Positions 5,278-21,935 of a DNA stretch of 64,000 bases are shown in pieces. The stretch spans positions 24,847 through 88,846 of the forward strand of contig JBIPLZ010000421.1 of assembly GCA_044369395.1 (NCBI GenBank), read 5' to 3'. Below the pieces are notes generated by a model. It was given only the letters and a program-made list of their open reading frames with translations, was not told the DNA's origin and ran no database searches. The stretch's first letter is position 1. Each line of letters starts with the position of its first letter. The stretch comes from Flavobacteriales bacterium. Its GTDB lineage: Bacteria; Bacteroidota; Bacteroidia; M30B66. The position numbers and the translations under genes are program-made.

Positions 5278-6534
5278 TTAGGTCATCCAAACGTTAGTTT
5301 TTCCGTCTCTTGACGCATATTCGTAATTTTTAAATAACAAAGAAAAATCTTTGTATTTGTAAACAGTATTTCCGGGTACAGCTCCTGGAGGTAAAATATT
5401 AGTTACGTTGTCGTAAGCTTCTATAGGTGGAAAACCGTTATGGGTTATAAGTTTATAACTTTGACTTCCTTGTAAAACTCTAGCAACAGCACCGGGAAGT
5501 TTTAAATTAGTATCTTTAGAAACTGGAAAATGTTGTAAAAACCAATTATGACCTCTAGGTTCTGTAGTAGGCTGACTTGTATTAACTGCCCCCGGCTCAG
5601 GATCAAAAAACTTCATTTTAAAAGTGATGTCATAAAGACGTTGATCTTCTAACCATCGATAAGGTTTTAACTCTACATTAGTAAGAAGTAATTGACCTTT
5701 TTTTGCACCAAGTGCATCCCAATCATATAAATTTACAGAGCCAATATGTGTTTTAATTGCTGCTGGAATACCGGGAACTTTGTGATGTATTACAACAATT
5801 TCAGAAGCACTTACTATTTTACCCTGAGCTCCTTGAACCATAATACCTACTGGCTCTTTTGTTTTAGCATCTAACAGCGGAAGTCCGTTTTTATCAAACT
5901 CTACCCACTTGTAAGCACCAAAAGGTAAGGATAAAAATTCTGCGGTTGGTTGTTTAAATACAGTAGTAAATTGAGATAATTGATACTCATCTGGTGATAC
6001 AGATTGTGATCCAATAAGTGGTTCTACTCGATAAGTAACTGATTCATAATTAATAGTTATTCTTGCTATGTCATAATAAGATGTTTGTAGTTTTGATCCA
6101 CTGCCTAAACTGTCATATAATATTTGTTGACCTAAACATTCAATGCTTTCTAGTCCAGTAGCAACCATAAAACTTTTTGCTGCTCCACCATTTGGACCAC
6201 CGTTTGATCCGTAGTATACATAATATTGATCGGGTTTTTCTCTTACTATTGTGTTGTCTGTAGGTGTTCCATCAATTGTTGCTGTTCCAAGCATGTATTT
6301 TATAAAAACCCATCTTTGTGGATAAGGAACATCAAAAGTTCTACGAGCACGAAACGTATCACCAGTGTATGACTCTTGTGGAGATCCTGGTCTTTCGTAA
6401 TAAGTTACAGCTTCTGTTCTTGGTTCTGCGGGTGTATTTGGAAAAGCAGAAGCCACTTTATAATTAATAATTGCAACTGACATTTTAAACTCCTTAAGAG
6501 GATGCGCCCATAGGTATTTTGTTTTCTCGAACAC
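5278..6534 (-). CDS. hypothetical distal tail/baseplate protein (probable true start at 6483)
   Basis: 418-aa ORF directly downstream of the tape-measure-like gene. An internal Met (MSVAIINYK) at 6483 is preceded by AAGGAG on the minus strand and removes the overlap with the giant gene. Confidence 0.4.
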   Translation of the reverse strand: MFEKTKYLWAHPLKEFKMSVAIINYKVASAFPNTPAEPRTEAVTYYERPGSPQESYTGDTFRARRTFDVPYPQRWVFIKYMLGTATIDGTPTDNTIVREKPDQYYVYYGSNGGPNGGAAKSFMVATGLESIECLGQQILYDSLGSGSKLQTSYYDIARITINYESVTYRVEPLIGSQSVSPDEYQLSQFTTVFKQPTAEFLSLPFGAYKWVEFDKNGLPLLDAKTKEPVGIMVQGAQGKIVSASEIVVIHHKVPGIPAAIKTHIGSVNLYDWDALGAKKGQLLLTNVELKPYRWLEDQRLYDITFKMKFFDPEPGAVNTSQPTTEPRGHNWFLQHFPVSKDTNLKLPGAVARVLQGSQSYKLITHNGFPPIEAYDNVTNILPPGAVPGNTVYKYKDFSLLFKNYEYASRDGKTNVWMT

Positions 6535-9500
6535 CCTCGTTTACTTTTTCAAGCTCTTTAAGCATGTTTATTAAACCGTGCTCATTCATTTTTTTCAATT
6601 CTGCTGTCATAGGATCATCACCAAGAGCCGATACTTGGATTTTTTTGTATGCTTCTTCTACAGAAGAATAAGAAGATTGTGACTTAGAACTTTGATATGC
6701 CATTGATAATTGTTGTTTAGAATCATTAGCAGGCAATGGTTTTCCGTTAGCATCTTTTTCATTTCTTCGTTTATCACCAAAAGCTAAATTTGAAGTTCCA
6801 CTTGCAATCTTACTTCCACCCCAAGATCCCAGTGCTCCACCTATTAAACCGCCTACAGCACCACCCACCGCAGTTCCAAGAGGTCCTACTAAAGAGCCAA
6901 GTGCAGCACCTGCCCAAGCACCACCCATAGCACCTGCTAAAGCACCACCGCCTGCACCAGCTACTTGAGCTCCTGTGCGTACAACATTTTCTCCACCACT
7001 CATACTTTTAATGTCAGCGTTTTCCATTCCTTCAGAAACACCACCTACAATGCCAGAAAGAATTCCACCTGTCATAGCAGCTCCACCACCTCCAGCTAAT
7101 AGTTTTGCTAAAAACCCAGTAGTTTTTGCACCAGTGGTACTGGCTGCTCCAGCCGTTGCTGCACTTGCCCCCGCTTTAGCAGCTCCCGCTGTAGCAGCAC
7201 CTGCTCCCGCAGTAGCAGCACCTGCACCTGCGGTAGCGGTAGCAGCACCTGCTGCTACTGGAGATACTGGAGGAACGGCTGCTCCTCTTCTTAGCATTAA
7301 AGAACTTGCTAATAAAGCTGCTCGAAAGAATGCAAATCCGTTTATTAAAAGAGATACACCCGATACAAGGGCTCCAAAGAAAGCAATCGCAGGAAGAACG
7401 GCTGCTCCTAAAAGTGCAATGCCTACGCCAAGAGCTAGGAATTTTCCATCTAAAACGCTGTTAACAAGACTGGAAAACATGCTAAACAATCTTCCAGCCG
7501 TTCCCGTACCGTTCATTATTTCCCTTGCCCACGTTTGAATTATTTGTGAAGCTCTAAGAAATACGGGAATTAAAGCCATGCCTACCGCACCCGATAAAAG
7601 CTTAATCGATCCGGTAAACGTAGCAAAAGTATCAGGAGATGCGTTAGCAGTCATACCACTCATGCTTTGACTAAAGCTTTGAATCTTTGCACTAGCTTCG
7701 GTAAGGTTTGATACAAAAGCTCCAAATCTTGTGTTTTTAACAAAATCGTTTAGCTTGTCTTTAAATGGGCCCATTATATCGCCGGAAGAGTAACTACCAC
7801 CAGAAGGTCTGGTAATAGTTGCACTTCCCCCACCAACCACACCGCCCCTTGCCATATGAGAAACACCGCGTTTTTTGTAAGCCCCTAACGCTGCCATCAT
7901 GTAAGGCACATCTTTTTTGGCGGTTATGTATTCTCCCTCTTGTGCCCAAACAGGAGTTTGATCTAAACCTTTAGGCTTTCCAGGAAATGAGTTTTTACCT
8001 CCTACAAATCCACCTAGAAAATGATGTTCTGGCCGTCTTCCACTTCCAGCTTCTGGATCAACAGCAGGTTTGTTTTTTATTAAATCATTTAATATTTCTG
8101 TTAAAGCTTGTAGTTCTTGTTTGAGTTTTTCTATAGCATCTGCACTAGCTTCAATTGCTTTTTTTTGTTTTTCAACTGCTATATCAATGTCTGCATCTGA
8201 AATTTCTGCACCGCTCATTTTTTGAGCTTGCAGTTCTTTTTCTAAATCTTCCGGAGATTTCATATTCTCTAGATCATATTTTTGAGCTTCTTTTATTTCT
8301 ATTTCATTTCTTTTTTCTTTTATTTCGGGAGTGTCTGTAGCATCTTCTTTTTGTTTACTTCTTTCTTTTTGTCGATGTTTTTTTTCTTCTTCTCTTTCCT
8401 CAAATCGTTCAGCTCTTTCAGTATTAAAACGATTAACTAAAAGACCTCCACCTAGTTTACCTAAAAATCCCCCTATAAGAGATCCAATAATTCCTCCTAT
8501 AGGTCCAACTGCTGCTGTACCAAATGAAACACCAACCGCAGCGCCAAAAGCTGCACCCATAACACCTATACTTGTTTCAGCTTGAGGAAGAACTTTTGAA
8601 GGTTTATCATCTGCGGTGTTTTCTATATATTTAATTTCGTACTCAGGGTATTTTTTCTGAATTTGTTGAAAGGCTTCTTCTTCACTACTTGCGTATTCGT
8701 GACCTTCTTTTTCACGAGTAAAATCATTTACGTCTTTATTTGGATTAATTATGTTGTAGTAAAATTCTTTTTCTTTAGAATCATCTTCGGGTTTATTGTT
8801 TTCTAGTTCTTCATATACAGGCGGTTTATTTGATTTAGTTATTTTAGTAAGAGCATATCCTAGTTCTTTAACTTTTTGTTGAGCTTCTTCTTCTGAACTA
8901 GCATTAATAGAATCTTTAACTTCTGTGCCTGTAGAATCCATTGCTTCGTAGTCATATCTAAACTTTGATTTTTTTTCTTTTGTTTCTTCTGTATTAGGAA
9001 TTGCATTAACAATAGAATCTACGTCAATAGTGTCGTGATCTTCGTAAGCATTTCCACTGTAACGGTTAAGAGTTTCGGCTAATACTTCTGCCCAACCTGC
9101 TGGTACTTCTTCTCTAAATCGAGGAATAGCTTGTTTAGATTCTGCATTAATCTTTGTTGTAGCTTCTTCTTTTTTTTCTTCTTGTTTTTCTTCTTTTGTT
9201 ACGTCTGGATTTTTAGTAACTTCTGGTTTTGTATCCTTAGCATCTTCTGTTGTTGCATCACTAGGTTCTGAAATAATTAACGGTTCGTCATCATCTTTTT
9301 TTACTTCGGTAGTTGTTTCAGCGGTGCTGCGTTTAATATCATTAAGTCGGTTTAATTGATTTTGAACAATAACCAGATTGGCTCTAGCGATCTTTTGAAA
9401 GATCGGGTTTGCCATTGTCTTAAGATAAGCTTCTATTTTTTTCTGTTCTTGTTCTAAAGATCCTCTTCCGCTTTCATCTATTCTTTTAACTGCGGTAGGA

Positions 9501-12500
9501 TTTAATGGTTTTACTTCTTTATCTAAATCGCCTCTGTCTGCACCCGTAAAGTTGTCAACTTCTTTTTGAAGTAAATAAGCAACAGTAGCAGGGTCAAAGT
9601 TAGAGGTCTTATCTTTAAATGCTTGATCTCCAGACAAAGAGTGACCCATTAATGCTGCAAGAATCATATGGGAGTTTAATCCCCCAGATCGACCTATCAA
9701 TCCATCAACAGCAGACATACCGTTAAACGCTCCATGATTTTTTTCAAGTTGAGCATTTACTTGTGGAGTTTGCATTAACTCCATAGGTACTTGTATTTGT
9801 GAAGCAGCACTACCGTATAGATCGCCATCTCCCATTTTTCTAGGAACAAATTTAGCTGCTTTATTAGAAGGACGTGCTGGCTCTTTTGTTGGTTCGGAAA
9901 CAATTTCTGGTTCGACTACTGGTGCAGCATTTTCAATGCTTTTGTCATAAGCAGCTTGAGCATTTTTAAGTTCTTCTTCTGCGTTTTCAAAAGCTAAAAT
10001 TTCAGCAGGCGGTTGATTTTCTCTTAATAAAAATGCACGATCTTTTAATTTTTTTTCTTTTTCAAAAGCTATTCGTGCATTAACTAAATCTGCTTTTAAA
10101 TTTTTATTTTTGGGTTTTAAAGGATTTCTATCTGTAGGTTTTATTTTTGGAGTTTCAGCAATGTCGGGGTCAACATCTCCACTTTTAGCGTGTCGAGTAT
10201 CAATTTCATTAGCATTTTCATCGTATCGATAATAACTTCCATTTTCTCCTATATATACTAAATCACTATTTATATTTTTAGATATTGTTCCAGGGATTCC
10301 GGGTTTGAAATTTTTTCTTCTTTCTATTTCAGAATTGATTGTATTTCTTTTTTCTTGTTCTTCTAAAGTATATCCCTCTTCTGATGGCTTCATTTCATCA
10401 AGAACATCCTTGAGTGTTTGAAAACCCCAGTGTTTAATCATTTCTGTAAAATTTGAATATTCGTCAGACTGCTCATTTGTTGGTAAACTTATTGGTTTTT
10501 CTGGTGGTACTACTGGTTTAATAATTGAAGGACGTGGCTCGGGATTTAAATCAATCGGTGGAGTTTTAGGGGTGATACTAATAGTAGGATCAGCGTGTCC
10601 TGTTACACCAAAGCTTGTATGAATTTTGCCATCTTGATAAAGATACTGTAATCCATTCTCTCCAGTATAAACTTCTTCGTTATCTTTATTTTTAGATAAA
10701 GTTCCAGGAATGCCAGGTTTAAAATTGTCTCTTCTTTCTATTTCTTTATCTACGTTAGCGTTATCTTCAATTTCAAAATCTTGCCAATTTGGACTTCCAT
10801 CTGAGTTGTAACCTTTTCTAGGTTCTCGAAATTCTTGCTGTTCTTTTAATTCAGAATACCTATAGTCTAGAAAACGATTTTTCTTTGGTGCTGTTGCTGA
10901 AGAAGTAGTTTCTGGTGCTAATTCTATTTCTAATTCAGCTATAGCTTTATCTATCTCTTTGATTTCGTCTTCGCTTAATGGAGGAGCAGTTGCAACTTTA
11001 GGTTTTGATTTTGCAACATCTTTTGGTGTATTGTTTTCTTTTTCTTTTTTCTTTTTATTTAAAACTCTAAATAACGTTGCTCCCGCTACTCCAGCAGTTC
11101 CTAAAGCAAGAGCTATTAATCTTCCAAAATTTGAACTAGGCTTTTCTTTTGGATTTTCTGAAACCTCTGGGGTTGCTATTTCAGACTCCATTGGAGAAGG
11201 AGTAGGTGCTGGGGATGGAGGTTGGTTTAAAGTGTTGTTTGGAGTTTGTATGTCTCCCGAAGCTTCAACGTCTTTAATGTGTGCTTCTTTTTGAGCACGG
11301 GAAAACTTTCTCCATTTACTAGGATCAATAGATTTTTTAGAAAACAAACCTTTTTTTAAACGAGCAGCTCCTTTCATTAAAGAAAGAGGTTTTTCATTTC
11401 CTTCTATATCTGCAACATGAAGATGACCTTCAGCAGCAAGTTTTTCAGTTAGAGATTCACCGTCTACTAAAATGTCCCCAAGAAGTCGTTGATATTTATC
11501 TAACTTTGGTTTTCCTTCACTATCTACTAAAACTTTTGCTTCAATTTTTTTTGCATTAGCTAATATATTTCTTGCTGCATCTTCTGCTTCTCGTCCACCT
11601 GGCTGATCAAGTTCTCCTGGTCCATGAGCAACTTCCGGAGCATCTCCTTTATTAAGTCTTAATTTACCTTTACCCGTGTCATAAGTATCAGCATCTTTAA
11701 TAAGATTACTAGTAAGAGGATTTTTAACGTTCATTGGAAACGTTACGTATTTTTCTTCTTTTATAGAAGCCGGTTTTTTATTTGTTGAGGTAGGTTTTGA
11801 ATTTACCGGAATAGTAGGTAAAGATAAAGCAGGGGTTGGTTTAGCCGTAGGAGCTGTAGAATAAAACGGAGCTTGTGACCCTGATATAATACTGTCAGGT
11901 GGAACATTTGTTGAGCCTTTAATTCCAACTTTAGGAGCATTAGGATTAGTAGATCGTAACAATGGCGGGTTATTTTTACTGGATTGTTCAATTGCTGATG
12001 GTATAGCTACAATAGTATCTACAACATTTTTAACTATGTTATCAAGATTTTTTTGAGGATCTTCGGGTTTAGGTTCTAAAGGCAGTATTCCACCTTGGCT
12101 GTAAAGACCTCCAGCAGCTAACCAAGCTTGTTCTTTTTTATCTTTTTCTTCTTTTTCTTTTTGATTTTTTTCTTCTAAAGCTGCTGTTTCCTCAGCCGTC
12201 GGTGGAGGGCCTGCAAGTTGTGCTGCTTTTGCATCTTCTTTTTGTTTCTTAAGTGCTGCTACTCTAGCAGCTTCTTTTTCTTTTTCCGCACGGATTTGTT
12301 TAATATCTTCAACAGCAGAAGATGGTTTAGCAGCTTCTTCTGCTTTTCTTTCACGGTCTGCATAAATACTTAACTCTGCTGCATTTGGACTTTTATCTTT
12401 ACGACGATCTTCAATTCCTTTTTGGAAAAAGTTTTCACGGGCTCTTGGGTCGCCTATTACACTTCCTTCAACACCGTTATTTTTATTTACAAATCCCGCG

Positions 12501-15500
12501 GCTCTTTCGTCTTCTAATGTTCCAGCCCCTGCCATAGAAGCCATTAACATTGGAACAATAGCTGCTGCTAACATTGGTCCAGATAAAGAGTTTTTAATTG
12601 CAGCTACAATAGAATATTTAAAATCACCTGCGGGAAGGTTTTGATCTTTTAATCCAGAGACATCATGGCCTGCAATACCTTTTAAAACGGCTGCAAGAAG
12701 TTCTTCAAAAGAAGATAAGTATTTGCCAGAGTCAAAAGCACCTGCTAAATCTCCCGATTTCTGGTTGCTAATTGCTCCGTATGCACCTTGAAGCTCTCCT
12801 CTAGCTTGAGCTAAGTCGGCTCCTTCTGCAAATAAAGCGGGTATCTTATTAGAAAGACCATGAATAAAAGCTTCTTCCATAATTAAAGCTATTACTTTGG
12901 CTCTTGCTTCAGCATCATTTCCTAAAATAGCAGCGTCAGGAATTGCAAGAGTAAGTGATTGTTTTAAGTTATCACCTTCACCTTTTGTTCCTACACGACC
13001 TTGATATTCTCCATCTTTTCCTTTTATGCTTTCACTACGAGATATTTTTATTTTGTCAAATATTTTGTAGATGTTTATGCCCATTTCATTTGAAATGGTT
13101 TTTAATAGGTTTTTTACCCCTTCAACATAAGAAGCATCAGTGACAACTTTATTACCTTTATTTATTCTTAATTCTGCATCGCCTTCTTTTTGATTGATGT
13201 TTTGTATGCTTGAATCTTTTCCGGAATAAAACTTTTTGATAATAGAAGAAACTGTTTCAACAACAGATATTAAATTTTTATCTGGAGTTTTACCAGAGTC
13301 GTTAGCTAGGTTTTTTACTATGCTTGAAACGTTTTCGCTAGGGGGTGTAATTGAACTTTTAAGTTTTTGAAATTGAGAAGCTAACGCTCTAAATATTTGA
13401 TCTTGAATTTCAGTATCAACACTTGCGTCATGTGCTGTACCTTCTGTAATTATTCCAAAAGCTTCTTTTTGAACTTCAATTGTAAATATTGTTTTTCCAT
13501 CTTCAGAAGCTTCTTGTTGTTTTATAGAATCAACAATACCTGATCTGTTTTCTTTTTCTTCTCTTTTTTTTGCTTGATCTAAAGCAATTTTTGTAAGCTT
13601 TGTCTGAAGATCAGAAGTTTTAAAATGTTTTTTTTCTATTTCTATTAATTGTTTAATTATGTAATCAGTGTTTACATTTGCATATGAAGCGGAACCTATT
13701 TCATTTTTTCTTTTATCAACATTTCCAACAATTTTTAACATTGCATTTTTTATTTCGTCATTATTAGCATTAGCTAAATCGTCTTCATATGTTCCTTTTC
13801 GATTAATTGTTGCTGTAGGATCTTTCTCTAACATTTCTGCAATTTTATCTGTTATACGTTTTGCAGCATTTTCTGGAGTTAAAGTATTTCCAGCGTCATC
13901 TTCTTTAAGATACGTTTCATTAAAATCTTTAAATTTTGGGTCTTTGTTTAAATCGAGAGTTTCATCTGCCTTAATAAAAATGTTTAAAGGTTCAACTAAA
14001 TTTTTTCCTAAAGCATCTTTCATAATCATGCTTAATTGAACAATCTGAGCTTCAATTGCATGATTTTCAGAATTAACAGGGGCTGTTGGCGGTGATACTG
14101 TCTCAGCATCTATTGTTATTACATTTTTATTTTTAAACAGATTTCCAATATTGTTTAAATCTAAAAGTATTGAAGATAAGTTTTCATTTGAATCAGAATT
14201 AGAGTCGGAGTCATTATTAGCGTCTATAAGCTTAGTAACTAAATTTTCTGTCTCTAATGTTTTTTGACCTCTTGCTAACGCTTCTTGTGTGCTTTGGGTT
14301 AATGTTGAAACAGGAGCAGATGTATTAGTTGCAGAAGCATCTTTTACTCCATAAACTGAATCTCTTGCATCTTGTTTTTTTTGTCTTCTTGTTTTAAAAA
14401 GATTATCTTTGTTATCAATACCAGCAGCAATTAATGCAAGCTCGGCATCTTTAAACCACTTTTCTATTCCAAGTCGTTCTAAATAATAATTTTTAAGCTG
14501 TTCTAGTTTTTTAAGATACCAGTTATTTTCTTCTGGAGGTTCAATCTTTGCTATTTCTTCTTTAGACAAACCTTTTATTTTTTCTTGATATTCTTTTTCT
14601 GCTACATCATCTTTTTCTTTTTGTCTTTTTTGACGAGGAGAAAGATCCGCATTTTTAATTGCTGCCATAGCTTTTTTATGAGCAGCAGTTACGTTTTCTT
14701 TTTCAGTTAAATAGTTAACATAAGACCGTAAAGGTTTTTGATAATGCTCCCCAAATTTGTTGATGTCTTCAGCTAAAGAGTCGGGTTGATCTAAAAAGCT
14801 TTCGTAAGTTCTCTTATTAAAAGGCTCTAACGGCTTTTCATCATTTTTGTGATTATCTTTGTTAGTTTGCCGTATTGCTTCTAATCTTTCTTGATGGGCT
14901 CGATACTCTATTTCTTTGGCAACTAAATACTCAACGTAGTTGTTTAGAGCACCAGCAGATTCTGTTTGTTCTTTTTTATAAGTATTTACAGCGTTTGCTT
15001 GTTTATAAGCATCAACATTCCCTGGCATGGGAAAGTCTTGTTTTCTTTGTACATCTTTTTCTTCTTTTTTCTTTTCATTTGCTATTCGTTTAGCATCTTG
15101 AAATTTTTCGTATAGCTCAGATTTTGTTTCTAAAAAAGCTTTGTACTTTGCTAAATTTTCTTGATTCCTTTTTACTTCATTAGCATTTCGTTCTGCTACT
15201 ACTTGCTTGCTTTCGTTATAAGATTTTGTCCATTGAGCTTTCTTTTTTAAATATTCAAGGTGTTTTTTTTCACTCTCAGCGTCTTTTGGGCTGGAAACTT
15301 TTGGATCTTCATTAAACGCTTTGGTCCATTGAGCTTTCTTTTTTAAATACTCAATATGATCTCGTTGATCTTGAGTCATACCACTACTGTCAACAGCTTC
15401 TCGTTTAGCTTTTTCTTCTTCGTAAAATTTTGTAGATGCTTCAGATTTCCTTTTAAGCATTTTTACGTAATCAGCTAATATTTCGTCATCGTTAAGAGTG

Positions 15501-15898
15501 GGATCTTTTACGTTGTTTTTTGCAGCGAGTTGTTTACGAATAAGAATCTTTGCGTTTTCACGCATAGCAAAACTTGCAAGAATTTCAGCGTCAGATTTTT
15601 CACCACCACCACTACTACCACTTCTAGCAAAGTGACTAGCAAGACCGCCTCGTTGCCCACCGCCTTGATTGTCGTTACTAAACAGGGATCGAGATGCTCT
15701 CATTTGAAATGCAAGAGCGTGGAATTCTACTGCAATGTGCTTGGCAGAATCTTGAATAGATTCTAATTGAATACTAAAACGGTTTAAAGAAGCGGTCATT
15801 TGAGAGAACTGCTCAAATATTTTTTTGACCGCTTCTGCACCGGTGTAAGGTACTTGTGATAGTTTTGGACGACCGTGTTCTTGTCCTTGACCGATCAT
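6494..15898 (-). CDS. giant tape-measure-like virion protein (3134 aa) with an embedded staphylococcal-nuclease (SNase/thermonuclease) domain
   Basis: It sits after the tail-assembly-chaperone pair and before the distal tail genes. It is highly charged, K/E-rich and coiled-coil-like, with internal tandem repeats. The C-terminal ~500 aa have Gly/Ala-rich hydrophobic segments (GAAVLPAIAFFGALVSGVSLLINGFAFF...; AGAATAGAGAATAGAG). At roughly aa 1270-1400 (about nt 11410-11720) there is an SNase-like signature: DADTYDTGKGKLRLNKGDAPE...KIEAKVLVDSEGKPKLDKYQRLLGDILVDGESLTEKLAAEGHLHV. Confidence 0.6.
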   Translation of the reverse strand: MIGQGQEHGRPKLSQVPYTGAEAVKKIFEQFSQMTASLNRFSIQLESIQDSAKHIAVEFHALAFQMRASRSLFSNDNQGGGQRGGLASHFARSGSSGGGEKSDAEILASFAMRENAKILIRKQLAAKNNVKDPTLNDDEILADYVKMLKRKSEASTKFYEEEKAKREAVDSSGMTQDQRDHIEYLKKKAQWTKAFNEDPKVSSPKDAESEKKHLEYLKKKAQWTKSYNESKQVVAERNANEVKRNQENLAKYKAFLETKSELYEKFQDAKRIANEKKKEEKDVQRKQDFPMPGNVDAYKQANAVNTYKKEQTESAGALNNYVEYLVAKEIEYRAHQERLEAIRQTNKDNHKNDEKPLEPFNKRTYESFLDQPDSLAEDINKFGEHYQKPLRSYVNYLTEKENVTAAHKKAMAAIKNADLSPRQKRQKEKDDVAEKEYQEKIKGLSKEEIAKIEPPEENNWYLKKLEQLKNYYLERLGIEKWFKDAELALIAAGIDNKDNLFKTRRQKKQDARDSVYGVKDASATNTSAPVSTLTQSTQEALARGQKTLETENLVTKLIDANNDSDSNSDSNENLSSILLDLNNIGNLFKNKNVITIDAETVSPPTAPVNSENHAIEAQIVQLSMIMKDALGKNLVEPLNIFIKADETLDLNKDPKFKDFNETYLKEDDAGNTLTPENAAKRITDKIAEMLEKDPTATINRKGTYEDDLANANNDEIKNAMLKIVGNVDKRKNEIGSASYANVNTDYIIKQLIEIEKKHFKTSDLQTKLTKIALDQAKKREEKENRSGIVDSIKQQEASEDGKTIFTIEVQKEAFGIITEGTAHDASVDTEIQDQIFRALASQFQKLKSSITPPSENVSSIVKNLANDSGKTPDKNLISVVETVSSIIKKFYSGKDSSIQNINQKEGDAELRINKGNKVVTDASYVEGVKNLLKTISNEMGINIYKIFDKIKISRSESIKGKDGEYQGRVGTKGEGDNLKQSLTLAIPDAAILGNDAEARAKVIALIMEEAFIHGLSNKIPALFAEGADLAQARGELQGAYGAISNQKSGDLAGAFDSGKYLSSFEELLAAVLKGIAGHDVSGLKDQNLPAGDFKYSIVAAIKNSLSGPMLAAAIVPMLMASMAGAGTLEDERAAGFVNKNNGVEGSVIGDPRARENFFQKGIEDRRKDKSPNAAELSIYADRERKAEEAAKPSSAVEDIKQIRAEKEKEAARVAALKKQKEDAKAAQLAGPPPTAEETAALEEKNQKEKEEKDKKEQAWLAAGGLYSQGGILPLEPKPEDPQKNLDNIVKNVVDTIVAIPSAIEQSSKNNPPLLRSTNPNAPKVGIKGSTNVPPDSIISGSQAPFYSTAPTAKPTPALSLPTIPVNSKPTSTNKKPASIKEEKYVTFPMNVKNPLTSNLIKDADTYDTGKGKLRLNKGDAPEVAHGPGELDQPGGREAEDAARNILANAKKIEAKVLVDSEGKPKLDKYQRLLGDILVDGESLTEKLAAEGHLHVADIEGNEKPLSLMKGAARLKKGLFSKKSIDPSKWRKFSRAQKEAHIKDVEASGDIQTPNNTLNQPPSPAPTPSPMESEIATPEVSENPKEKPSSNFGRLIALALGTAGVAGATLFRVLNKKKKEKENNTPKDVAKSKPKVATAPPLSEDEIKEIDKAIAELEIELAPETTSSATAPKKNRFLDYRYSELKEQQEFREPRKGYNSDGSPNWQDFEIEDNANVDKEIERRDNFKPGIPGTLSKNKDNEEVYTGENGLQYLYQDGKIHTSFGVTGHADPTISITPKTPPIDLNPEPRPSIIKPVVPPEKPISLPTNEQSDEYSNFTEMIKHWGFQTLKDVLDEMKPSEEGYTLEEQEKRNTINSEIERRKNFKPGIPGTISKNINSDLVYIGENGSYYRYDENANEIDTRHAKSGDVDPDIAETPKIKPTDRNPLKPKNKNLKADLVNARIAFEKEKKLKDRAFLLRENQPPAEILAFENAEEELKNAQAAYDKSIENAAPVVEPEIVSEPTKEPARPSNKAAKFVPRKMGDGDLYGSAASQIQVPMELMQTPQVNAQLEKNHGAFNGMSAVDGLIGRSGGLNSHMILAALMGHSLSGDQAFKDKTSNFDPATVAYLLQKEVDNFTGADRGDLDKEVKPLNPTAVKRIDESGRGSLEQEQKKIEAYLKTMANPIFQKIARANLVIVQNQLNRLNDIKRSTAETTTEVKKDDDEPLIISEPSDATTEDAKDTKPEVTKNPDVTKEEKQEEKKEEATTKINAESKQAIPRFREEVPAGWAEVLAETLNRYSGNAYEDHDTIDVDSIVNAIPNTEETKEKKSKFRYDYEAMDSTGTEVKDSINASSEEEAQQKVKELGYALTKITKSNKPPVYEELENNKPEDDSKEKEFYYNIINPNKDVNDFTREKEGHEYASSEEEAFQQIQKKYPEYEIKYIENTADDKPSKVLPQAETSIGVMGAAFGAAVGVSFGTAAVGPIGGIIGSLIGGFLGKLGGGLLVNRFNTERAERFEEREEEKKHRQKERSKQKEDATDTPEIKEKRNEIEIKEAQKYDLENMKSPEDLEKELQAQKMSGAEISDADIDIAVEKQKKAIEASADAIEKLKQELQALTEILNDLIKNKPAVDPEAGSGRRPEHHFLGGFVGGKNSFPGKPKGLDQTPVWAQEGEYITAKKDVPYMMAALGAYKKRGVSHMARGGVVGGGSATITRPSGGSYSSGDIMGPFKDKLNDFVKNTRFGAFVSNLTEASAKIQSFSQSMSGMTANASPDTFATFTGSIKLLSGAVGMALIPVFLRASQIIQTWAREIMNGTGTAGRLFSMFSSLVNSVLDGKFLALGVGIALLGAAVLPAIAFFGALVSGVSLLINGFAFFRAALLASSLMLRRGAAVPPVSPVAAGAATATAGAGAATAGAGAATAGAAKAGASAATAGAASTTGAKTTGFLAKLLAGGGGAAMTGGILSGIVGGVSEGMENADIKSMSGGENVVRTGAQVAGAGGGALAGAMGGAWAGAALGSLVGPLGTAVGGAVGGLIGGALGSWGGSKIASGTSNLAFGDKRRNEKDANGKPLPANDSKQQLSMAYQSSKSQSSYSSVEEAYKKIQVSALGDDPMTAELKKMNEHGLINMLKELEKVNEGVRENKIPMGASS

Positions 15899-15907
15899 AA
15901 GGGCTCC

Positions 15908-16114
15908 TTACAATTTAGGGGAAGGCTCACTATTTTGTTTGTTCCAAAGTTTTTGAGTCTCTTCTTCTGAAAGACCTCTCCAATCTTTGTTAACTTTCCA
16001 AAATAGTTCTTTAGCCGATTGATATTGACCAACTGGTTCGTCTGCCGATTTTGGTCTAAAATACAAGTTTTTAACTTGATAGGGGGTGAGCTTACTTATC
16101 TGCTCAATACTCAA
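15908..16114 (-). CDS. tail assembly chaperone, -1-frame extension (GT-like C-terminal part)
   Basis: A 68-aa ORF is annotated from a TTG, but its frame is open upstream for at least about 50 more codons, overlapping the end of the 147-aa ORF in the -1 frame. Confidence 0.35.
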   Translation of the reverse strand: MSIEQISKLTPYQVKNLYFRPKSADEPVGQYQSAKELFWKVNKDWRGLSEEETQKLWNKQNSEPSPKL

Positions 16115-16158
16115 GTTATATGGGTCACGTAATAACGTCGCAAAGATCTCTGAGATAC

Positions 16159-16602
16159 TTATCCGGCGGCCTGGTTCTGAGCTGCCTCCGGACCACTCGG
16201 GTTTGGGTCGGTGTTCGCCTCTCCAACTTTTTCCATCATTTCTTCTAATCGTGTTTGAACAAGATCATCAATCGTATCAATTTCAATCTCAGGATGATTA
16301 GGAAGAAGACAAATATGAAGAATTTTTTTAAAGTGAGTAAGCGTTTGCATAGCTCTCATACAAGGAGCAGATCCAAATGCGTAATACCCTTCTGCAATAT
16401 CTTTTTGAGTTTGAGCAATTAACTCTGCGTACTCTGTTTGTGTTAAATACTGACGCATTCTTTTTGCAGTCTTAACCGCAGTGTCTTCTAAATACTTTTC
16501 AAAATCACCTTGAATTTTGTATGTCCAAGGAGAGCATGTATACTTTACACCGTTGTGCTCAAAGGTACTACCAAGCCCCAGTGCTTTAGAAATCTCAGCC
16601 AT
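16159..16602 (-). CDS. tail assembly chaperone (G-like, upstream frame)
   Basis: 147-aa ORF immediately upstream of the tape-measure-like gene, in the canonical position. The -1 frame is open across its 3' end and continues into the next ORF. Confidence 0.4.
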   Translation of the reverse strand: MAEISKALGLGSTFEHNGVKYTCSPWTYKIQGDFEKYLEDTAVKTAKRMRQYLTQTEYAELIAQTQKDIAEGYYAFGSAPCMRAMQTLTHFKKILHICLLPNHPEIEIDTIDDLVQTRLEEMMEKVGEANTDPNPSGPEAAQNQAAG

Positions 16603-16611
16603 ATCATTCTC

Positions 16612-17154
16612 CTAAATGTTATAAACTTCATAATCCGGACTATTGTTTTTGCCTGAAAAAGTAATTTTTGTAATGCCTTTAGCTTCAGCAGTCTGAGTAC
16701 ATTGTGTAATTAAAAAGCTGTTAAAAAGCCAATAAGCATTACTACTACCTAAAGCAGGCAACGTTGAAAAATTAGGCGAACTTCGATATTTATCTGGGTA
16801 TAAAGCAAGAGCTATTGTTCTCCCTGCTGTTAATTCAAAGCCACCCGAAAACCAAAATTGAACTCCACCAGAAGTTGAAGCTGTATCATAAAAAGCTTCT
16901 ACATTTACAATAATTTCAGATACAGTTGGAATAGCATACTTAGTGTTTATTTTTTTAGGATTGTTTCGAATACCAGCAGCAATTTGAGCACCTTGAGTGC
17001 TAGTAAGATCTGCTGTTTCAATTGACATGTCAACAGACCATTTATTTGCTTTTATAACTTGCCAAGGTCCGGGAGTTGCTGCTGACGCATGAAGTGGTAA
17101 AGCTGCATAAGTTGCCATAGCAACTCGACCACCCCACCCTGCAATTACTGCCAT
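16612..17154 (-). CDS. hypothetical tail protein
   Basis: 180-aa ORF in the tail module between the tube-like proteins and the chaperones. Confidence 0.3.
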   Translation of the reverse strand: MAVIAGWGGRVAMATYAALPLHASAATPGPWQVIKANKWSVDMSIETADLTSTQGAQIAAGIRNNPKKINTKYAIPTVSEIIVNVEAFYDTASTSGGVQFWFSGGFELTAGRTIALALYPDKYRSSPNFSTLPALGSSNAYWLFNSFLITQCTQTAEAKGITKITFSGKNNSPDYEVYNI

Positions 17155-17214
17155 AATACATTCCTATTTATAAAAGGAGAGCTTAAGTAAGCTCTCCTTC
17201 TATTAAAATTAAAA

Positions 17215-17694
17215 CTAAGCTATTTGAATACCTGTACCACCGGAAACTTTTCCAGCTAAAGTATATTTAATAACTCCGCGAACTTCTGTATCAACGGTAA
17301 GGTTTTCTACAAAAGCATTAAACATAAACTTTTTAGTGTCACCAGCACCTGCGTAGTCAACACCAGAAGCCACGCCTTTGTTAGTAAACAATTGCAATTT
17401 GATATAAGCACCGGGCTTAAGCAGAGGAATAATACCATCAACTGCGTCATAATACGCATCAACGTTAAATTCCAAGTCGGACATAGATTGAACATAACGG
17501 CTAATTGGAGTGTTAGCTCCGTCAGCACCACCAGTTGTTTCTTCAAAAGAAGAAGCATCTTGCAGTTCGGTTTTGTAAGTTACAGACCATTTGGTTGCAA
17601 GTAAAGCAATCGCGTTGCCAACACCTGCACCAGTAGGACCAACAGCTTGAACTAGTACACGACCACGAAAACCGGAAATTGCTGTAGCTGGCAT
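17215..17694 (-). CDS. tail tube-like protein
   Basis: 159-aa ORF with N-terminus MPATAISGFRGRV, similar to the neighbouring 173-aa ORF (MATSLAISGIRAGF). This is the size and position expected for a major tail protein. Confidence 0.35.
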   Translation of the reverse strand: MPATAISGFRGRVLVQAVGPTGAGVGNAIALLATKWSVTYKTELQDASSFEETTGGADGANTPISRYVQSMSDLEFNVDAYYDAVDGIIPLLKPGAYIKLQLFTNKGVASGVDYAGAGDTKKFMFNAFVENLTVDTEVRGVIKYTLAGKVSGGTGIQIA

Positions 17695-17746
17695 TTAGAA
17701 ACTCCTTAATTTTTTATAAACAGGGGGATAAATAAACAACGCTGGA

Positions 17747-18268
17747 TTACTCCCCAGCAAAGCCTACACGAACAATGACAGGGTTTGATCCGTCATTATT
17801 TTGAATTTTAAGTATGTCAGCGGTAGTTAAAGTTACTGGATAACCAGTAGAATCGTTGCAAGAAAGCTGCATACAACCGCCTAAACGAATTCTAATTTTA
17901 TCGGTTGCGTCACCAAAAAAACTTGAAAACGCAGCAGTAGCGTGACCGCCTACATAAATAGATGATCCCGTGCTAAGTGTAGAAGATAGTAATTCAATAT
18001 ACATAAGACGGATTTTAGTAAAAGCAATGCTTGCTCCAAATACGTCTGTAAGTGCTCCAGAAAGATCTAAGTTTGCAGTTGCACCTGCTGCAATAGAAAT
18101 CTCATCTACATAAAATACACTGCACTTACCTTCACCAGTTCCATTTGCAAGAGAACTAGAAAAGTTAAAAGATCCGGAATTAGTGGTGTCAGCTCCTACA
18201 GTAGTAGTTTGGGCTGCACTCCAACCAAAACCTGCTCGAATACCGCTAATTGCTAATGATGTAGCCAT
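17747..18268 (-). CDS. tail tube-like protein (paralog)
   Basis: 173-aa ORF sharing the AISGxRxG N-terminal motif with the 159-aa ORF. Confidence 0.35.
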   Translation of the reverse strand: MATSLAISGIRAGFGWSAAQTTTVGADTTNSGSFNFSSSLANGTGEGKCSVFYVDEISIAAGATANLDLSGALTDVFGASIAFTKIRLMYIELLSSTLSTGSSIYVGGHATAAFSSFFGDATDKIRIRLGGCMQLSCNDSTGYPVTLTTADILKIQNNDGSNPVIVRVGFAGE

Positions 18269-18288
18269 TTAAAAATCTCCTAAGAATG

Positions 18289-18996
18289 TTAAAGAACCCT
18301 CGTTATCATAATATCGTATATTACAGATCCACGAAAGATCAAATTTCCATCTTTATACCGAAAATTTTCACTTCGGACATTTTGTTCAATTGGCTGCATA
18401 GACACGGTTTTGTTGGTTGTTTTTTCAAAAGGCAGGGGTTTCCAGTCAAACGATTCTCTAATTATTTCAAGACATTCATCTATTAAAGCAGCACCCGGAG
18501 CGTAGACTATAAAATCTAAATTAGTGCCTTCAAAATAAGTTGCTTCTGTTGTGAAATTAAAACTACGATCTGAATCTCGAATAATTACATAAGGCATAGA
18601 AAGCGTTTTGCCTTCTATAGATTCAGGAGCTTCATTGGCAAACATTCCTCCAGTAAACTTGCTCATTAAAGAAGGAGTGGAATACCATTTACTTTTAACG
18701 GCTGCTAATATCGAATCGGGATTGTTTAAATCAAGTGATGAAAAAAACGGTAAAGAAATATTATTTTGAGCATCTTTACATACAGCATAAACTTGTTGAA
18801 AACTAAAAGCAGGGCGATTGCTTACACGAAGATCACCAGATTGAAGTAATGATCCGTAATATAAATATTGCTCTGTAAAACTATCAGAACTTTTTGTGTA
18901 AATATCTACAGTGTAGTTTTGTGGAAAAGATGTTCTAACAATAAAAGAAGTAGAGCTTTCTTTTATTAAATCAAAAGAAGGACTTGGTATGCTCAT
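18289..18996 (-). CDS. hypothetical neck/tail-completion protein
   Basis: 235-aa ORF between the head-tail joining genes and the tube proteins. Confidence 0.3.
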   Translation of the reverse strand: MSIPSPSFDLIKESSTSFIVRTSFPQNYTVDIYTKSSDSFTEQYLYYGSLLQSGDLRVSNRPAFSFQQVYAVCKDAQNNISLPFFSSLDLNNPDSILAAVKSKWYSTPSLMSKFTGGMFANEAPESIEGKTLSMPYVIIRDSDRSFNFTTEATYFEGTNLDFIVYAPGAALIDECLEIIRESFDWKPLPFEKTTNKTVSMQPIEQNVRSENFRYKDGNLIFRGSVIYDIMITRVL

Positions 18997-19337
18997 TAAA
19001 GCACCTGTTCCTTTCCTTCAATCATAAATAGTTTGTTTCTACTAGCAATATTCATAAAACCTGTGACTATGTAATAGGTATTAGTTTTTTCTAAACGAAT
19101 CCTGTCACCTCGTTTTGGTTTTAAATCAACATTAGTGTATATCTGATGGGTAATGATTATTTGTCGAGAAGCATACTCTTGTTTTAAAAGAGTTGAAACA
19201 GGTTGAATAGAAGCTGAAATGTTTTCAGAACCTGTTACTGCTTTCCAGTTTTCTCTTTTTGAACCCGCAGAAGCATCTAAGGTTATAACAGACCTTTCTA
19301 ATGTTACCTTTTTGTTTAATAGAAAAGGAGAAAGCAT
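18996..19337 (-). CDS. head-tail joining/head-closure protein
   Basis: 113-aa ORF, translationally coupled and directly after the connector gene. Confidence 0.3.
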   Translation of the reverse strand: MLSPFLLNKKVTLERSVITLDASAGSKRENWKAVTGSENISASIQPVSTLLKQEYASRQIIITHQIYTNVDLKPKRGDRIRLEKTNTYYIVTGFMNIASRNKLFMIEGKEQVL

Positions 19338-20005
19338 TAAAGAGATTGCTCCCTATAGCGAGTTAGTATTTGATCTACTGAAGATAACAATGGATCGTTG
19401 GTTTTTTGTCGAGGATCAAATATTTGATATTCATAATCACCAAGTTTTTCAGATTGAAGAATACTTCCTACTTCTACATTACGTTTCATAAATGATACTA
19501 AAAGGCAAACAGCATACTGAATATCCATAGGTATGATGTTATAACCTGCTGTATAGGTGATTTTTAAATTGCCGTAAGTAGGTCCAATCTCAGAAGCAAG
19601 TTTGCCGGGGTAATAAACCCTGCCTGCTTCCATCCAGACTCCACCAATACGAACAAGAAGGCCAGATTTAGATTCTGTTACACCTGCATCAATGTCTAAG
19701 GTGTAGTGCATACCAGCAGTAAGTAATGTTGCAGGCCCAAAAGAATTTGCGTTATATCCATAATATGCTTGATAGTCTTCGTAAACAGATTGAACAGAAA
19801 TAACAGGGCGGTTACGAAGAATAATTGATCGTTGTGAATTACCTGCATAGTATTCTGTATAAGAAGCAGGCTCCAAATTACGCTTAATTCGATTGCTTAT
19901 AATCGACTCAGCAGCAATTTGGAGCCCTGTTAATTGTGAATTTTGTGTAGCATCAGAACCCGGTATATTGAGAAAGCTCTTTATTTGTGCCAAGCTGGTA
20001 AGCAT
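19337..20005 (-). CDS. head-tail connector protein (gp6-like)
   Basis: N-terminus MLTSLAQIKSFLNIPGSDATQNSQLTGLQIAAESIISNRIKRNL matches the gp6-like head-tail connector pattern (..vK.hL.i..d..d..L..li.aA...i). It lies downstream of the capsid gene. Confidence 0.45.
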   Translation of the reverse strand: MLTSLAQIKSFLNIPGSDATQNSQLTGLQIAAESIISNRIKRNLEPASYTEYYAGNSQRSIILRNRPVISVQSVYEDYQAYYGYNANSFGPATLLTAGMHYTLDIDAGVTESKSGLLVRIGGVWMEAGRVYYPGKLASEIGPTYGNLKITYTAGYNIIPMDIQYAVCLLVSFMKRNVEVGSILQSEKLGDYEYQIFDPRQKTNDPLLSSVDQILTRYREQSL

Positions 20006-20035: not shown

Positions 20036-20455
20036 CTAAACAACAAGTGCGCCATTACTATCGCCAGCAATTTTCTTGCTTGCAATGATTACAACAGATA
20101 ATGGCAAAGCTACTGGCGAACCTGTTACGGTTGCTACGGCTCTTACATATCGTTTGTTGCGAAGAAGTTTGCCCAAGAACTGGAACTGACCGTTAAGGTC
20201 TGAACCAGAAAGAGTGTCATAACTCTTAAGGTCTACAAAGTTACTGTTGTCATCGCTCTCTTGAACTTTGACAGCAAGGGTTGGGCTTGTTCCACCGGAA
20301 GCAGTTCCGGTTACCAAGAGTGCATTAATAGGGCCATCGGAAAGTTGAAGGTCAATTCCGGTTCCGGTTACTGAAGAAGCAGGAGCTGTTACGGGAGCGA
20401 TTGAAGCTGCACCCATTCCTTGATTCTTTAGATCTGCAATAAAAGTAGCTGGCAT
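20036..20455 (-). CDS. hypothetical head protein
   Basis: 139-aa ORF between the capsid and connector genes. Confidence 0.3.
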   Translation of the reverse strand: MPATFIADLKNQGMGAASIAPVTAPASSVTGTGIDLQLSDGPINALLVTGTASGGTSPTLAVKVQESDDNSNFVDLKSYDTLSGSDLNGQFQFLGKLLRNKRYVRAVATVTGSPVALPLSVVIIASKKIAGDSNGALVV

Positions 20456-20522: not shown

Positions 20523-21935
20523 CTACGCAATGTTGAGGTTGTCGCAAATTACAAATGATGCTTCATGACGAGGAGCTCCGTCACAATACATGATCCCTCG
20601 ATACCACGTTTGGTCGGTGGTAAACGGTGTATCACCTTGTGTACTGATTTGGAACTCGATAGCACCAGAAAGAGCAATCATATAATCGCTAAAGTCGCCA
20701 CCAAGGATATAGCTCAAGTTAGAAGAGCTACCCTTAGTTCTTGAACCGCTGATCTGGGTAGACTTGTAAACAGGGTTGCCATACAAGTTACCAGGAGTGG
20801 TTCGGCTGTAATCCATGTTCGTGTTTAGTTCACGGAACATGTTGAATACGAATGGACCCTTAGCGTCGTTAGCAACAACAGCATCAGACCTTCTGTTAGC
20901 AATTGCTGCGTAAAGAAGAGGACGCATAAGGAAGGATTTGAACTGTGCGTTCTGTTCTTCCACTTTCGCAATCATGTTTGCAATATCTTCTGGTTGAATG
21001 GTATCACCATTTGTTCCAGTTACCTTTGCAGTGTGACGGCTAATGTTTGCGTAGTTGATAAGACCTTTAGGTTCATTGCTTGAACCAGTTGCTTCCAACA
21101 ACGACTTGTCCAATCGAAGAGCAAGTACACGGCTGATATCCTCTCGCAAGAACATTTCAACCGAGACAGAGCTAAATCGGAAAAGTTCGTTTGGAACTTT
21201 GCACAAGATTCCGAGCTTCTTGGCTTGCAAGAGTACGTCACCAGTTGCAGGTGTTGAATCTTGAACTGCGTTGGATTCACCAACCCAGTAAGCTGTACCA
21301 GCGTTGGTTTGCCTTGGGAAAGTGATTCTGCCGTTTGGTGGCATAGCAATGGTGCGAGCACCAGCACTCATGAACACTTCGTTATTTCTAAGGAGTTCGA
21401 TAAGTTCGCCTTGGATTGGAGGGGCAACTAATGCACCGCCTTGACTTTCGTCAATCCACGACATAGCTTTTTGAACACCCCATTGTTTAGCACGAATGTT
21501 ACGAACTTCTTCACGGTCATAACCAGTAATGCCTGCGGTTACAATATCACGGATATCTTTAGCAAAGCCTTCTTCGCCGGGGATTTCAGCAATGTAATCG
21601 CTGCCAAAAGGAGCCATAATGGTGTTAGTGTGAGCTTTGTTGTAACCAAGACGGTCTACATAAAGCTTTTGAAGAGCTTGAGCGGTTTCCCATTCAACTC
21701 TTGCATTTTCGGGAGAGAGTTCGCCACGAAGAAGACCAAAAAGTTTTACGAAGCTATAGCCTCGCGAACTCATTGAGTTTTCACCTTTGCGAACTTGAGG
21801 AGCGTTAAGTACCGAGCTGTTCCTTGCGGACTTGCTGGTGCTTTCGATTTCACTCAGTTTGTTTTGAAACTTTGCCTGAGTTTCGGTAATGCTATTGATT
21901 GCATCAATAACAGGCTTAATGTTTTTCCCGGCCAT
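20523..21935 (-). CDS. major capsid protein, HK97 fold
   Basis: 470-aa ORF with characteristic HK97-family segments (GGALVAPPIQGELIELLRNNEVFMSAGARTIAMP; WYRGIMYCDG). It is flanked by the prohead protease and connector genes. Confidence 0.8.
   Translation of the reverse strand: MAGKNIKPVIDAINSITETQAKFQNKLSEIESTSKSARNSSVLNAPQVRKGENSMSSRGYSFVKLFGLLRGELSPENARVEWETAQALQKLYVDRLGYNKAHTNTIMAPFGSDYIAEIPGEEGFAKDIRDIVTAGITGYDREEVRNIRAKQWGVQKAMSWIDESQGGALVAPPIQGELIELLRNNEVFMSAGARTIAMPPNGRITFPRQTNAGTAYWVGESNAVQDSTPATGDVLLQAKKLGILCKVPNELFRFSSVSVEMFLREDISRVLALRLDKSLLEATGSSNEPKGLINYANISRHTAKVTGTNGDTIQPEDIANMIAKVEEQNAQFKSFLMRPLLYAAIANRRSDAVVANDAKGPFVFNMFRELNTNMDYSRTTPGNLYGNPVYKSTQISGSRTKGSSSNLSYILGGDFSDYMIALSGAIEFQISTQGDTPFTTDQTWYRGIMYCDGAPRHEASFVICDNLNIA

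Follow-up and report, generated by a model that had tools for sequence, protein, structure and literature searches.

How does a reading frame come to be translated when it overlaps the end of a phage tail gene, runs well beyond it, and has its first possible start codon inside its own conserved region? The question is raised by two minus-strand frames in a 64,000-nucleotide (nt) stretch of DNA, referred to here as the window (positions 24,847 to 88,846 of contig JBIPLZ010000421.1, assembly GCA_044369395.1, assigned to a Flavobacteriales bacterium). The upstream frame, gene G, encodes a candidate tail assembly chaperone of 147 amino acids (aa); the other, T, lies in the -1 frame relative to G and ends just before a tape-measure-like gene. 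Comparison of the locus with its relatives suggests an answer: very probably the two form a pair of the lambda G/GT type, with a programmed -1 frameshift at a slippery heptamer, C_CCA_AAC, and a hairpin downstream of it as the stimulator.

Gene G (16602..16159; this and all genes discussed below are on the minus strand) runs from an ATG, preceded by AGGAG at 16613-16609, to a TAA at 16161-16159. The list of open reading frames (ORFs) for the window also contains a 68-aa ORF (16114..15908) beginning with TTG; its start is offset from that of G by 488 nt, or 2 mod 3, and is thus in the -1 frame. This frame is free of stops from 16264, right after a TGA at 16267-16265, to 15911, and closes with a TAA at 15910-15908; its translation contains GKSWRGEHRPKPEWSGGSSEPGRRISISEIFATLLRDPYNLSIEQISKL. 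The +1 frame, in the window, is closed 34 nt past the G stop. So far this agrees with a preliminary description of the locus, which had placed the end of the 147-aa ORF at 16159, had taken the -1 frame to be open from about 16260 through the TTG-initiated 68-aa ORF, with a translation matching that obtained here, and had seen no -1-frame stop between an upstream A-run and 16159. There is indeed none in the window, but several relatives do have -1-frame stops in that interval. T, as defined by frame and stop analysis and by conservation, is the -1-frame coding sequence from the putative slip site to the TAA at 15910-15908 (15908..16207).

The surroundings of the two frames are those of a G/GT pair. 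The gene order is portal, protease, major capsid, head-tail adaptor, two tube-fold paralogs, G, T (in the -1 frame) and tape measure; G and T(-1), flanked by the major tail (tube) protein gene on one side and the tape measure gene on the other, therefore occupy the position that Xu et al. (2004) gave to the G/GT pair, as summarised in later papers (PMC5009743; PMC2628397). The tape-measure-like gene (3134 aa; 15898..6494) starts 10 nt past the T stop, and its own AAGGAG Shine-Dalgarno (SD) sequence overlaps the T stop codon. A tail-assembly-chaperone pair of the G/GT type upstream of the tape measure gene, with a -1 frameshift and a fusion product of about 230 aa, had been proposed in the preliminary description, and both synteny and comparison strongly support it.

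The overlap of the two frames includes a canonical heptamer in the X_XXY_YYZ phase of G: C_CCA_AAC, at 16201..16207, made up of the last base of D132 (gaC) and the codons P133 (CCA) and N134 (AAC). The preliminary description had noted that its A-run is not a textbook heptamer and had named no other candidate; there are in fact two canonical heptamers, the second (A_AAC_CCG, 16198..16204) overlapping the first and also in phase. Neither is remarkable as a single occurrence. In-phase X_XXY_YYZ heptamers are found at 0.009 per codon in the ORFs of the AT-rich window, or about 0.3 expected per 35-codon overlap, and CCCAAAC occurs in phase once in 15,091 codon positions; with about 0.3 expected by chance, a heptamer in a single sequence is weak evidence, and its strength therefore has to come from conservation across relatives.

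Such relatives are available. A protein search with the conceptual fusion returned 21 G homologs (40-100% identity, 143-149 aa), all of them unannotated and none fused, and scans of viral and metagenome contigs yielded 28 loci with 18 distinct sequences. Alignment of homologous chaperone pairs, which the preliminary description had suggested as a way to find a conserved slippery site, finds CCCAAAC in 16 of the 18 distinct relatives (viral and metagenome collections), always at mRNA index 395, with G identity down to 46% (measured against the window's G over the first 140 codons, and ~46-55% in the distant clades). Conservation at this point extends beyond the protein sequence. Among 14 distinct sequences, 37 amino-acid columns of G other than Met and Trp are invariant; the codon varies in 34 of these, and is invariant only at D132, P133, and N134 (GAC CCA AAC, 14 of 14). 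Where two sequences share a residue, they share its codon in 91 of 91 pairs at positions 132-134 (a score of 1.00) vs. 0.48 overall, and the neighbouring invariant residues E120, E121, K125, A129, and N130 score from 0.26 to 0.86. Codon invariance at 132-134 is what a slippery site should show, and would not result from constraint on the protein alone.

Two of the relatives narrow the position further. Locus L020 has a -1-frame TGA directly before the CCC of the heptamer, and the earliest G stop, that of L011, is at index 423; the slip window shared by the family is therefore about 28 nt long, and starts at the heptamer. In the CCCAAAC-bearing loci checked, the G stop lies 21-61 nt past the heptamer (~78 nt in L032). 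The second heptamer is a less consistent feature: it is present in only a subset of relatives (absent in L004-L007, L011, L012, and L019), and is only 4 nt from the hairpin. Since CCG and CCC both encode proline, a slip at A_AAC_CCG would give the same fusion protein sequence. Both heptamers are 21-24 nt 3′ of the A-run already mentioned.

The second element of the proposed signal is a candidate stimulatory hairpin (16161..16193), recognised by folding and covariation and separated from the heptamer by a 7-nt spacer, CCGAGTG (16194..16200). It can be written GUCCGG-A-GGC / 13-nt loop / GCC-G-CCGGAU: 10 positions, GC-rich, with nine pairs in the window, and a 3′ arm whose last base is also the first of the G stop codon. 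Every one of the 16 CCCAAAC-bearing close relatives has a spacer of exactly 7 nt; in six distant members of the family it measures 6-7 nt. Stem sequence is much more variable than stem position. Three unrelated versions are found (GUCCGG..CCGGAU; GCCUGGAC(U)..(A)GUCCAGGC; and GCCCGGCG..CGCCGGGC), with internal variants within the GUCCGG..CCGGAU type (e.g., GUCCGACGG..CCGUCGGAU), and depending on the clade the 3′ arm falls before, on, or after the G stop. Ranked by stability against the other 42-nt segments of its own locus, the segment involved falls in the top 0.5% here and in the top 0.05-4% in all 14 cases tested. In alignment A2, 86.7% of the cells of the 10-pair helix are paired, vs. 21-45% after a shift of the 3′ partner by 1-3 columns, a control that is inflated because the helix was derived from the same sequences. 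Seven of the 10 pairs change on both sides, and none of 500 shuffles reaches the observed covariation score, although the related sequences compared are not phylogenetically independent. A pseudoknot is not indicated, as no conserved complementarity was found between the hairpin loop and the 40 nt downstream.

A third kind of element is present in the window. An SD-like GGAGAGG (16224-16218), over codons G127-E128-A129, lies 10 nt upstream of the heptamer, the spacing at which such a sequence is stimulatory in dnaX. It is not kept in the relatives L002, L012, and L011, which have GGGGAAGC, TCGGAAGC, and TCGGCGGC, respectively (with GAAGC or GCGGC), at this place; a conserved SD-like element about 10 nt upstream of the heptamer, as in dnaX-type signals, is thus lacking.

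The T segment itself behaves as coding sequence. In the relatives, the -1 frame runs 245-410 nt past the G stop, and the +1 frame closes within 13-82 nt. The -1 product is 41-80% identical to the window's T, with a shared motif (…E/DPFxLSxEEIGxLTPYQVKNxYFRPKE…KELFWKVxxxWxxLSEEE…LW), and differences among the T sequences are distributed over codon positions 1/2/3 as 0.37/0.28/0.62, as expected if the -1 frame has been under purifying selection. If joined to G by a slip at C_CCA_AAC, it would form a GT fusion of 231 aa, composed of G residues 1-134 and a 97-aa T domain, with the predicted junction …EANTDPN/PEWSGGSSEPGRRISISEIFATLLRDPYNLSIEQISKLTPYQVKNLYFRPK… (also given as …EANTDPN/PEWSGGSSEPGRR…). 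Trypsin is predicted to release from this product a GT-specific junction peptide, VGEANTDPNPEWSGGSSEPGR; the corresponding G-specific C-terminal peptide is VGEANTDPNPSGPEAAQNQAAG.

The alternative that survives best, improbable as it is, dispenses with a frameshift: T might be a separate small protein translated from a start of its own (TTG 16114 in the window), perhaps through re-initiation or coupling once G has terminated. Gene callers have in fact called stand-alone T ORFs of 64-91 aa in several assemblies, and some relatives (L004/5, L007-10, L012/13) have an ATG 5-17 nt past the G stop from which independent initiation would be possible; in the distant L014, an ATG even overlaps the stop (ATGA), and there is no heptamer. 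The called ORFs, however, are N-terminally truncated. The only start available in the window, TTG 16114, has no SD sequence and falls inside the conserved EIFxxLxxEPFNLS block (EIFATLLRDPYN), cutting it short, with the conserved region beginning upstream of it. L006, L017, and L019 have no ATG, GTG, or TTG at all before LTPYQ, and start positions elsewhere are not conserved, as would be the case for a frame dependent on G for its initiation. Independent initiation also leaves unexplained why GAC CCA AAC should be invariant at the codon level, why a covarying hairpin should follow 7 nt past the heptamer, and why the -1 frame should always be open back to the heptamer.

A second alternative, which seems very improbable, retains the frameshift but moves it upstream to the A-run (GGAAAAAG, 16232-16228), where either a single tRNA-Lys might slip on A_AAA or the transcript itself might be heterogeneous through transcriptional slippage. 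This was the slip candidate favoured in the preliminary description. The run is present as described, but the range given for it was 3 nt too long at its upper end (ATGGAAAAAGTTGG corresponds to 16236-16223, with the five A's at 16232-16228). The window's -1 frame, being open from 16264, would already be available there, and an in-phase A_AAA followed by a stimulator is a weak but measurable -1 motif in E. coli (PMC4066793). The 0 frame, however, reads ATG GAA AAA GTT, that is, G_GAA_AAA, so that the P-site tRNA could not re-pair, and there is no X_XXY_YYZ heptamer in phase. Five A's are also too few for efficient transcriptional slippage. No structure is found 5-9 nt downstream of the run, and the run itself is broken in relatives (GAATAAAG in L001, GAATAAGG in L002, GGCTAAAG in L007). 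A slip at the position of the A-run would meet a stop in L002, L003, L018, L019, and L020, where the -1 frame is not open until mRNA index 392-395. Out of phase, not conserved, and followed by -1-frame stops in several relatives, the run at 16228..16232 was rejected as the slip site.

That a single G-T gene has simply been disrupted, whether through a recent mutation or through an indel introduced in sequencing or assembly, with heptamer and hairpin coincidental, can practically be dismissed: the chance expectation of ~0.3 in-phase heptamers in the 35-codon overlap and a regional fold no better than shuffles would leave room for it, but more than 20 independent assemblies, metagenomic and viral, with G identities of 46-100% and GC contents of 35-71%, have the two frames arranged alike and the heptamer at the same index, and in the CCCAAAC-bearing loci checked G always ends at the short distance past the heptamer given above.

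Several observations weigh against frameshifting at C_CCA_AAC as well, in addition to the inflated slide control and the shared ancestry of the sequences. In E. coli, it is A_AAG rather than A_AAC that makes the most slippery A-site context (PMC5009743; PMC4066793). The hairpin is modest, at about -14 kcal/mol, and the fold of the full 116-nt region is no better than that of shuffled sequences (z = -0.2); it was the local analysis alone, tied to position, that proved informative. The relatives with an ATG just after the G stop might initiate T independently, and the most distant clade (L014, L027, L035, L036), discussed below, has no X_XXY_YYZ heptamer at the site. Finally, no resemblance of G to a characterised tail assembly chaperone could be detected, in sequence or in fold, which leaves gene position and architecture as the sole basis for assigning its function.

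This last point was pursued with several methods. Neither Pfam nor PHROG has a match for G or T, and 51 diverse family members gave no match to a chaperone family; a PDB sequence-profile search with the G alignment returned nothing relevant, and the structures closest to G in BFVD were only those of uncharacterised proteins (from uncultured Caudovirales). Profile or fold similarity to the characterised chaperone families (Pfam Phage_TAC, PHROG, solved structures) is therefore not seen. An AF2 model of G (pLDDT 78.8) has an N-terminal beta-hairpin followed by five helices, and is disordered from residue 127; this disordered tail coincides with the overlap and the hairpin.

On the reading preferred here, a programmed -1 frameshift at C_CCA_AAC, most ribosomes would terminate at the TAA at 16161-16159, giving the 147-aa G. 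A minority would pause on the heptamer, with P-site tRNA-Pro paired to CCA and A-site tRNA-Asn to AAC, held by the GC-rich hairpin (16193-16161), which, being 7 nt downstream, would be positioned at the mRNA channel entrance. A tandem -1 slip would re-pair these tRNAs from CCA to CCC and from AAC to AAA, and translation would continue in the -1 frame to the TAA at 15910-15908, giving the 231-aa GT. If the lambda analogy holds, the 3134-aa tape measure would be coated by G and by the G part of GT, with the T domain bringing in the tail-tube protein and the efficiency of frameshifting setting a fixed G:GT ratio. We infer the slip itself, its efficiency, and the chaperone functions of G and T, the latter two from lambda.

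In lambda, G coats the tape measure protein and the T domain recruits the tube protein (PMC5009743); the -1 frameshift is conserved among tailed phages with double-stranded DNA, and the lambda G:GT ratio of 30:1 is crucial for assembly (PMC5009743). The original work on gpG/gpGT (Levin, Hendrix and Casjens, 1993; Xu, Hendrix and Duda, 2004, 2013, 2014) is cited here as summarised in that paper (PMC5009743). Like the lambda genes, those in the window are overlapping ORFs between tail-tube and tape measure genes, with the downstream one in the -1 frame and without initiation of its own. An X_XXY_YYZ heptamer near the 3′ end of G, a predicted short G plus a G-T fusion, and similar sizes (G about 140 aa, GT about 230-280 aa) complete the resemblance. 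The differences are in detail. The heptamer is C_CCA_AAC here and G_GGA_AAG in lambda. The lambda slip site is not known to depend on strong downstream structure, whereas the window and its relatives have a conserved, covarying hairpin 7 nt downstream of the heptamer. Neither sequence nor fold relates the G protein detectably to gpG or to a chaperone family of Pfam or PHROG, and its tape measure partner is unusually long. The pair would work like lambda G/GT: it is a member of the G/GT class as defined by frameshifting, and of no described chaperone sequence family.

A closer parallel for the A-site codon is found in haloarchaeal viruses, whose g-t sites use A_AAC second codons (PMC5009743). 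According to a 2013 study cited in that paper, these sites share the genomic position and -1 direction proposed here, and two of three have an A_AAC second codon, with tRNA-Asn slipping from AAC to AAA as it would in the window. The first codon (C_CCA here) is different, the host domain here is presumably bacterial, and the proteins are unrelated. No report of the exact heptamer CCCAAAC at a phage g-t site was found in the searchable literature. In its general layout (heptamer, 5-9-nt spacer, GC-rich stem-loop), the signal also resembles bacterial -1 programmed ribosomal frameshifting (PRF) signals, such as those of IS3-family orfAB genes and E. coli dnaX (A_AAA_AAG), but has C rather than G in the Z position; the form with G, C_CCA_AAG, is reportedly very prone to shifting in E. 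coli (PMC5009743). Unlike the bacterial pseudoknot signals, the signal has no conserved complementarity between the loop and downstream sequence.

The relatives considered so far belong to a much larger family. A profile of G matches 923 cluster representatives at 50% identity (E ≤ 1e-3), 307 of them at E ≤ 1e-10; among those listed, nearly all are ~130-190 aa long. The family is wholly unannotated and lies outside all Pfam and PHROG models. The phage lineage itself is known only from metagenomes, because no match to the tail region was found among 50,697 GenBank phage records (distant-mode blastn of 15800-18300; tblastn of G) and no G relatives were found in GTDB genome contigs. The samples are apparently mostly freshwater metagenomes, as judged from the accessions only.

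Many members of this family have a DP[N/K/T/S] motif at residues ~132-140, followed by a tail rich in P, A, S, and T. DNA from eight distant, GC-rich members (58-71% GC) was examined for a slip motif. GAC CCA AAC is found in L030, L031, and L033, and CCCAAAC at index 410 in L032; L029 and L034 have GAC CCA AAA (C_CCA_AAA, encoding DPK) at index 395, counted from G starts at locus positions 1501 and 154, respectively. In all six (L029-L034), a GC-rich hairpin follows after 6-7 nt, and the -1 frame contains an ORF that is recognisably T-like or a candidate for T, the weakest being that of L033. Judging from C_CCA_AAA in L029 and L034, the slip motif has turned over at a fixed, putative recoding position.

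The DPT and DPS members lack a heptamer at this position. L014 and L035 have GAC CCT ACG, and L027 and L036 GAC CCT TCG, with T still in the -1 frame. Besides the ATGA overlap in L014, there is in L027 an ATG 2 nt past the G stop, and further on a C_CCC_CCG heptamer that is in phase; in L035 the conserved T block is not preceded by any start codon. These clades may initiate T independently, or they may use a non-canonical, single-tRNA slip on a C_CCU tetramer. In E. coli, effective Z_ZZN tetramers include C_CC.U (PMC4066793). It is possible, if doubtful, that the slip site is an ancient recoding site, fixed in position, of a large uncharacterised chaperone superfamily (the 923 clusters), with the motif turning over in place; if so, the DPT and DPS clades would imply either frameshifting on a C_CCU tetramer or a switch to independent initiation.

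Knowledge of the G/GT frameshift as such goes back to 1993, and of its wide occurrence to 2004, and the present locus does not change this biology. What it may add is in part a matter of annotation: the 231-aa GT fusion is missed by gene callers, which omit T or call a truncated ORF of 64-91 aa, and a large family of "hypothetical" metagenomic-phage proteins outside Pfam and PHROG coverage would be assigned a function. The combination of heptamer, 7-nt spacer, and hairpin, with three covarying versions of the stem, would also serve as a clean comparative example of a -1 PRF stimulator in a bacterial virus, and as a ready test set for frameshift predictors such as PRFect.

The remaining genes of the region can be described briefly. 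The 3134-aa tape-measure-like ORF was identified through its C-terminal residues 2668-3102, which match PHROG tail-associated lysin (1e-13) and tape measure phrog_794 (8.7e-7); a Pfam scan of the whole protein gave no match. It is exceptionally long, and at 1.5 Å per residue would correspond to a tail of ~470 nm. A weak staphylococcal-nuclease-like segment is found at residues 1412-1517 (~11348-11665; PDB phmmer E ~1e-4).

Adjoining G on its upstream side is a 180-aa protein with a modelled tail-tube fold (16612..17154), with a 159-aa paralog beyond it (17215..17694; 27% identity, E 4e-8). This tandem arrangement suggests that the subunits of the tail tube are of two related kinds, or that a tube protein is accompanied by a tube-like accessory one. 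Still further upstream are a head-tail adaptor (19337-20005), the major capsid protein (20523-21935; Phage_capsid, 3e-39), a protease/scaffold-like ORF (22171-24285), and the portal (24288-25628; Pfam Phage_portal, 3.5e-41); the minus-strand genes of this region make up a structural module of the siphovirus type. No tRNA genes turned up when all 64 kb of the window were scanned for them, and no Rfam family reached its gathering threshold. Near the major capsid gene, a 139-aa ORF (20036-20455) has a weak match to phrog_9522, "major tail protein" (5.7e-9), and a better one to a PHROG of unknown function (2.8e-14); judged by its position, it is more likely a head-associated protein.

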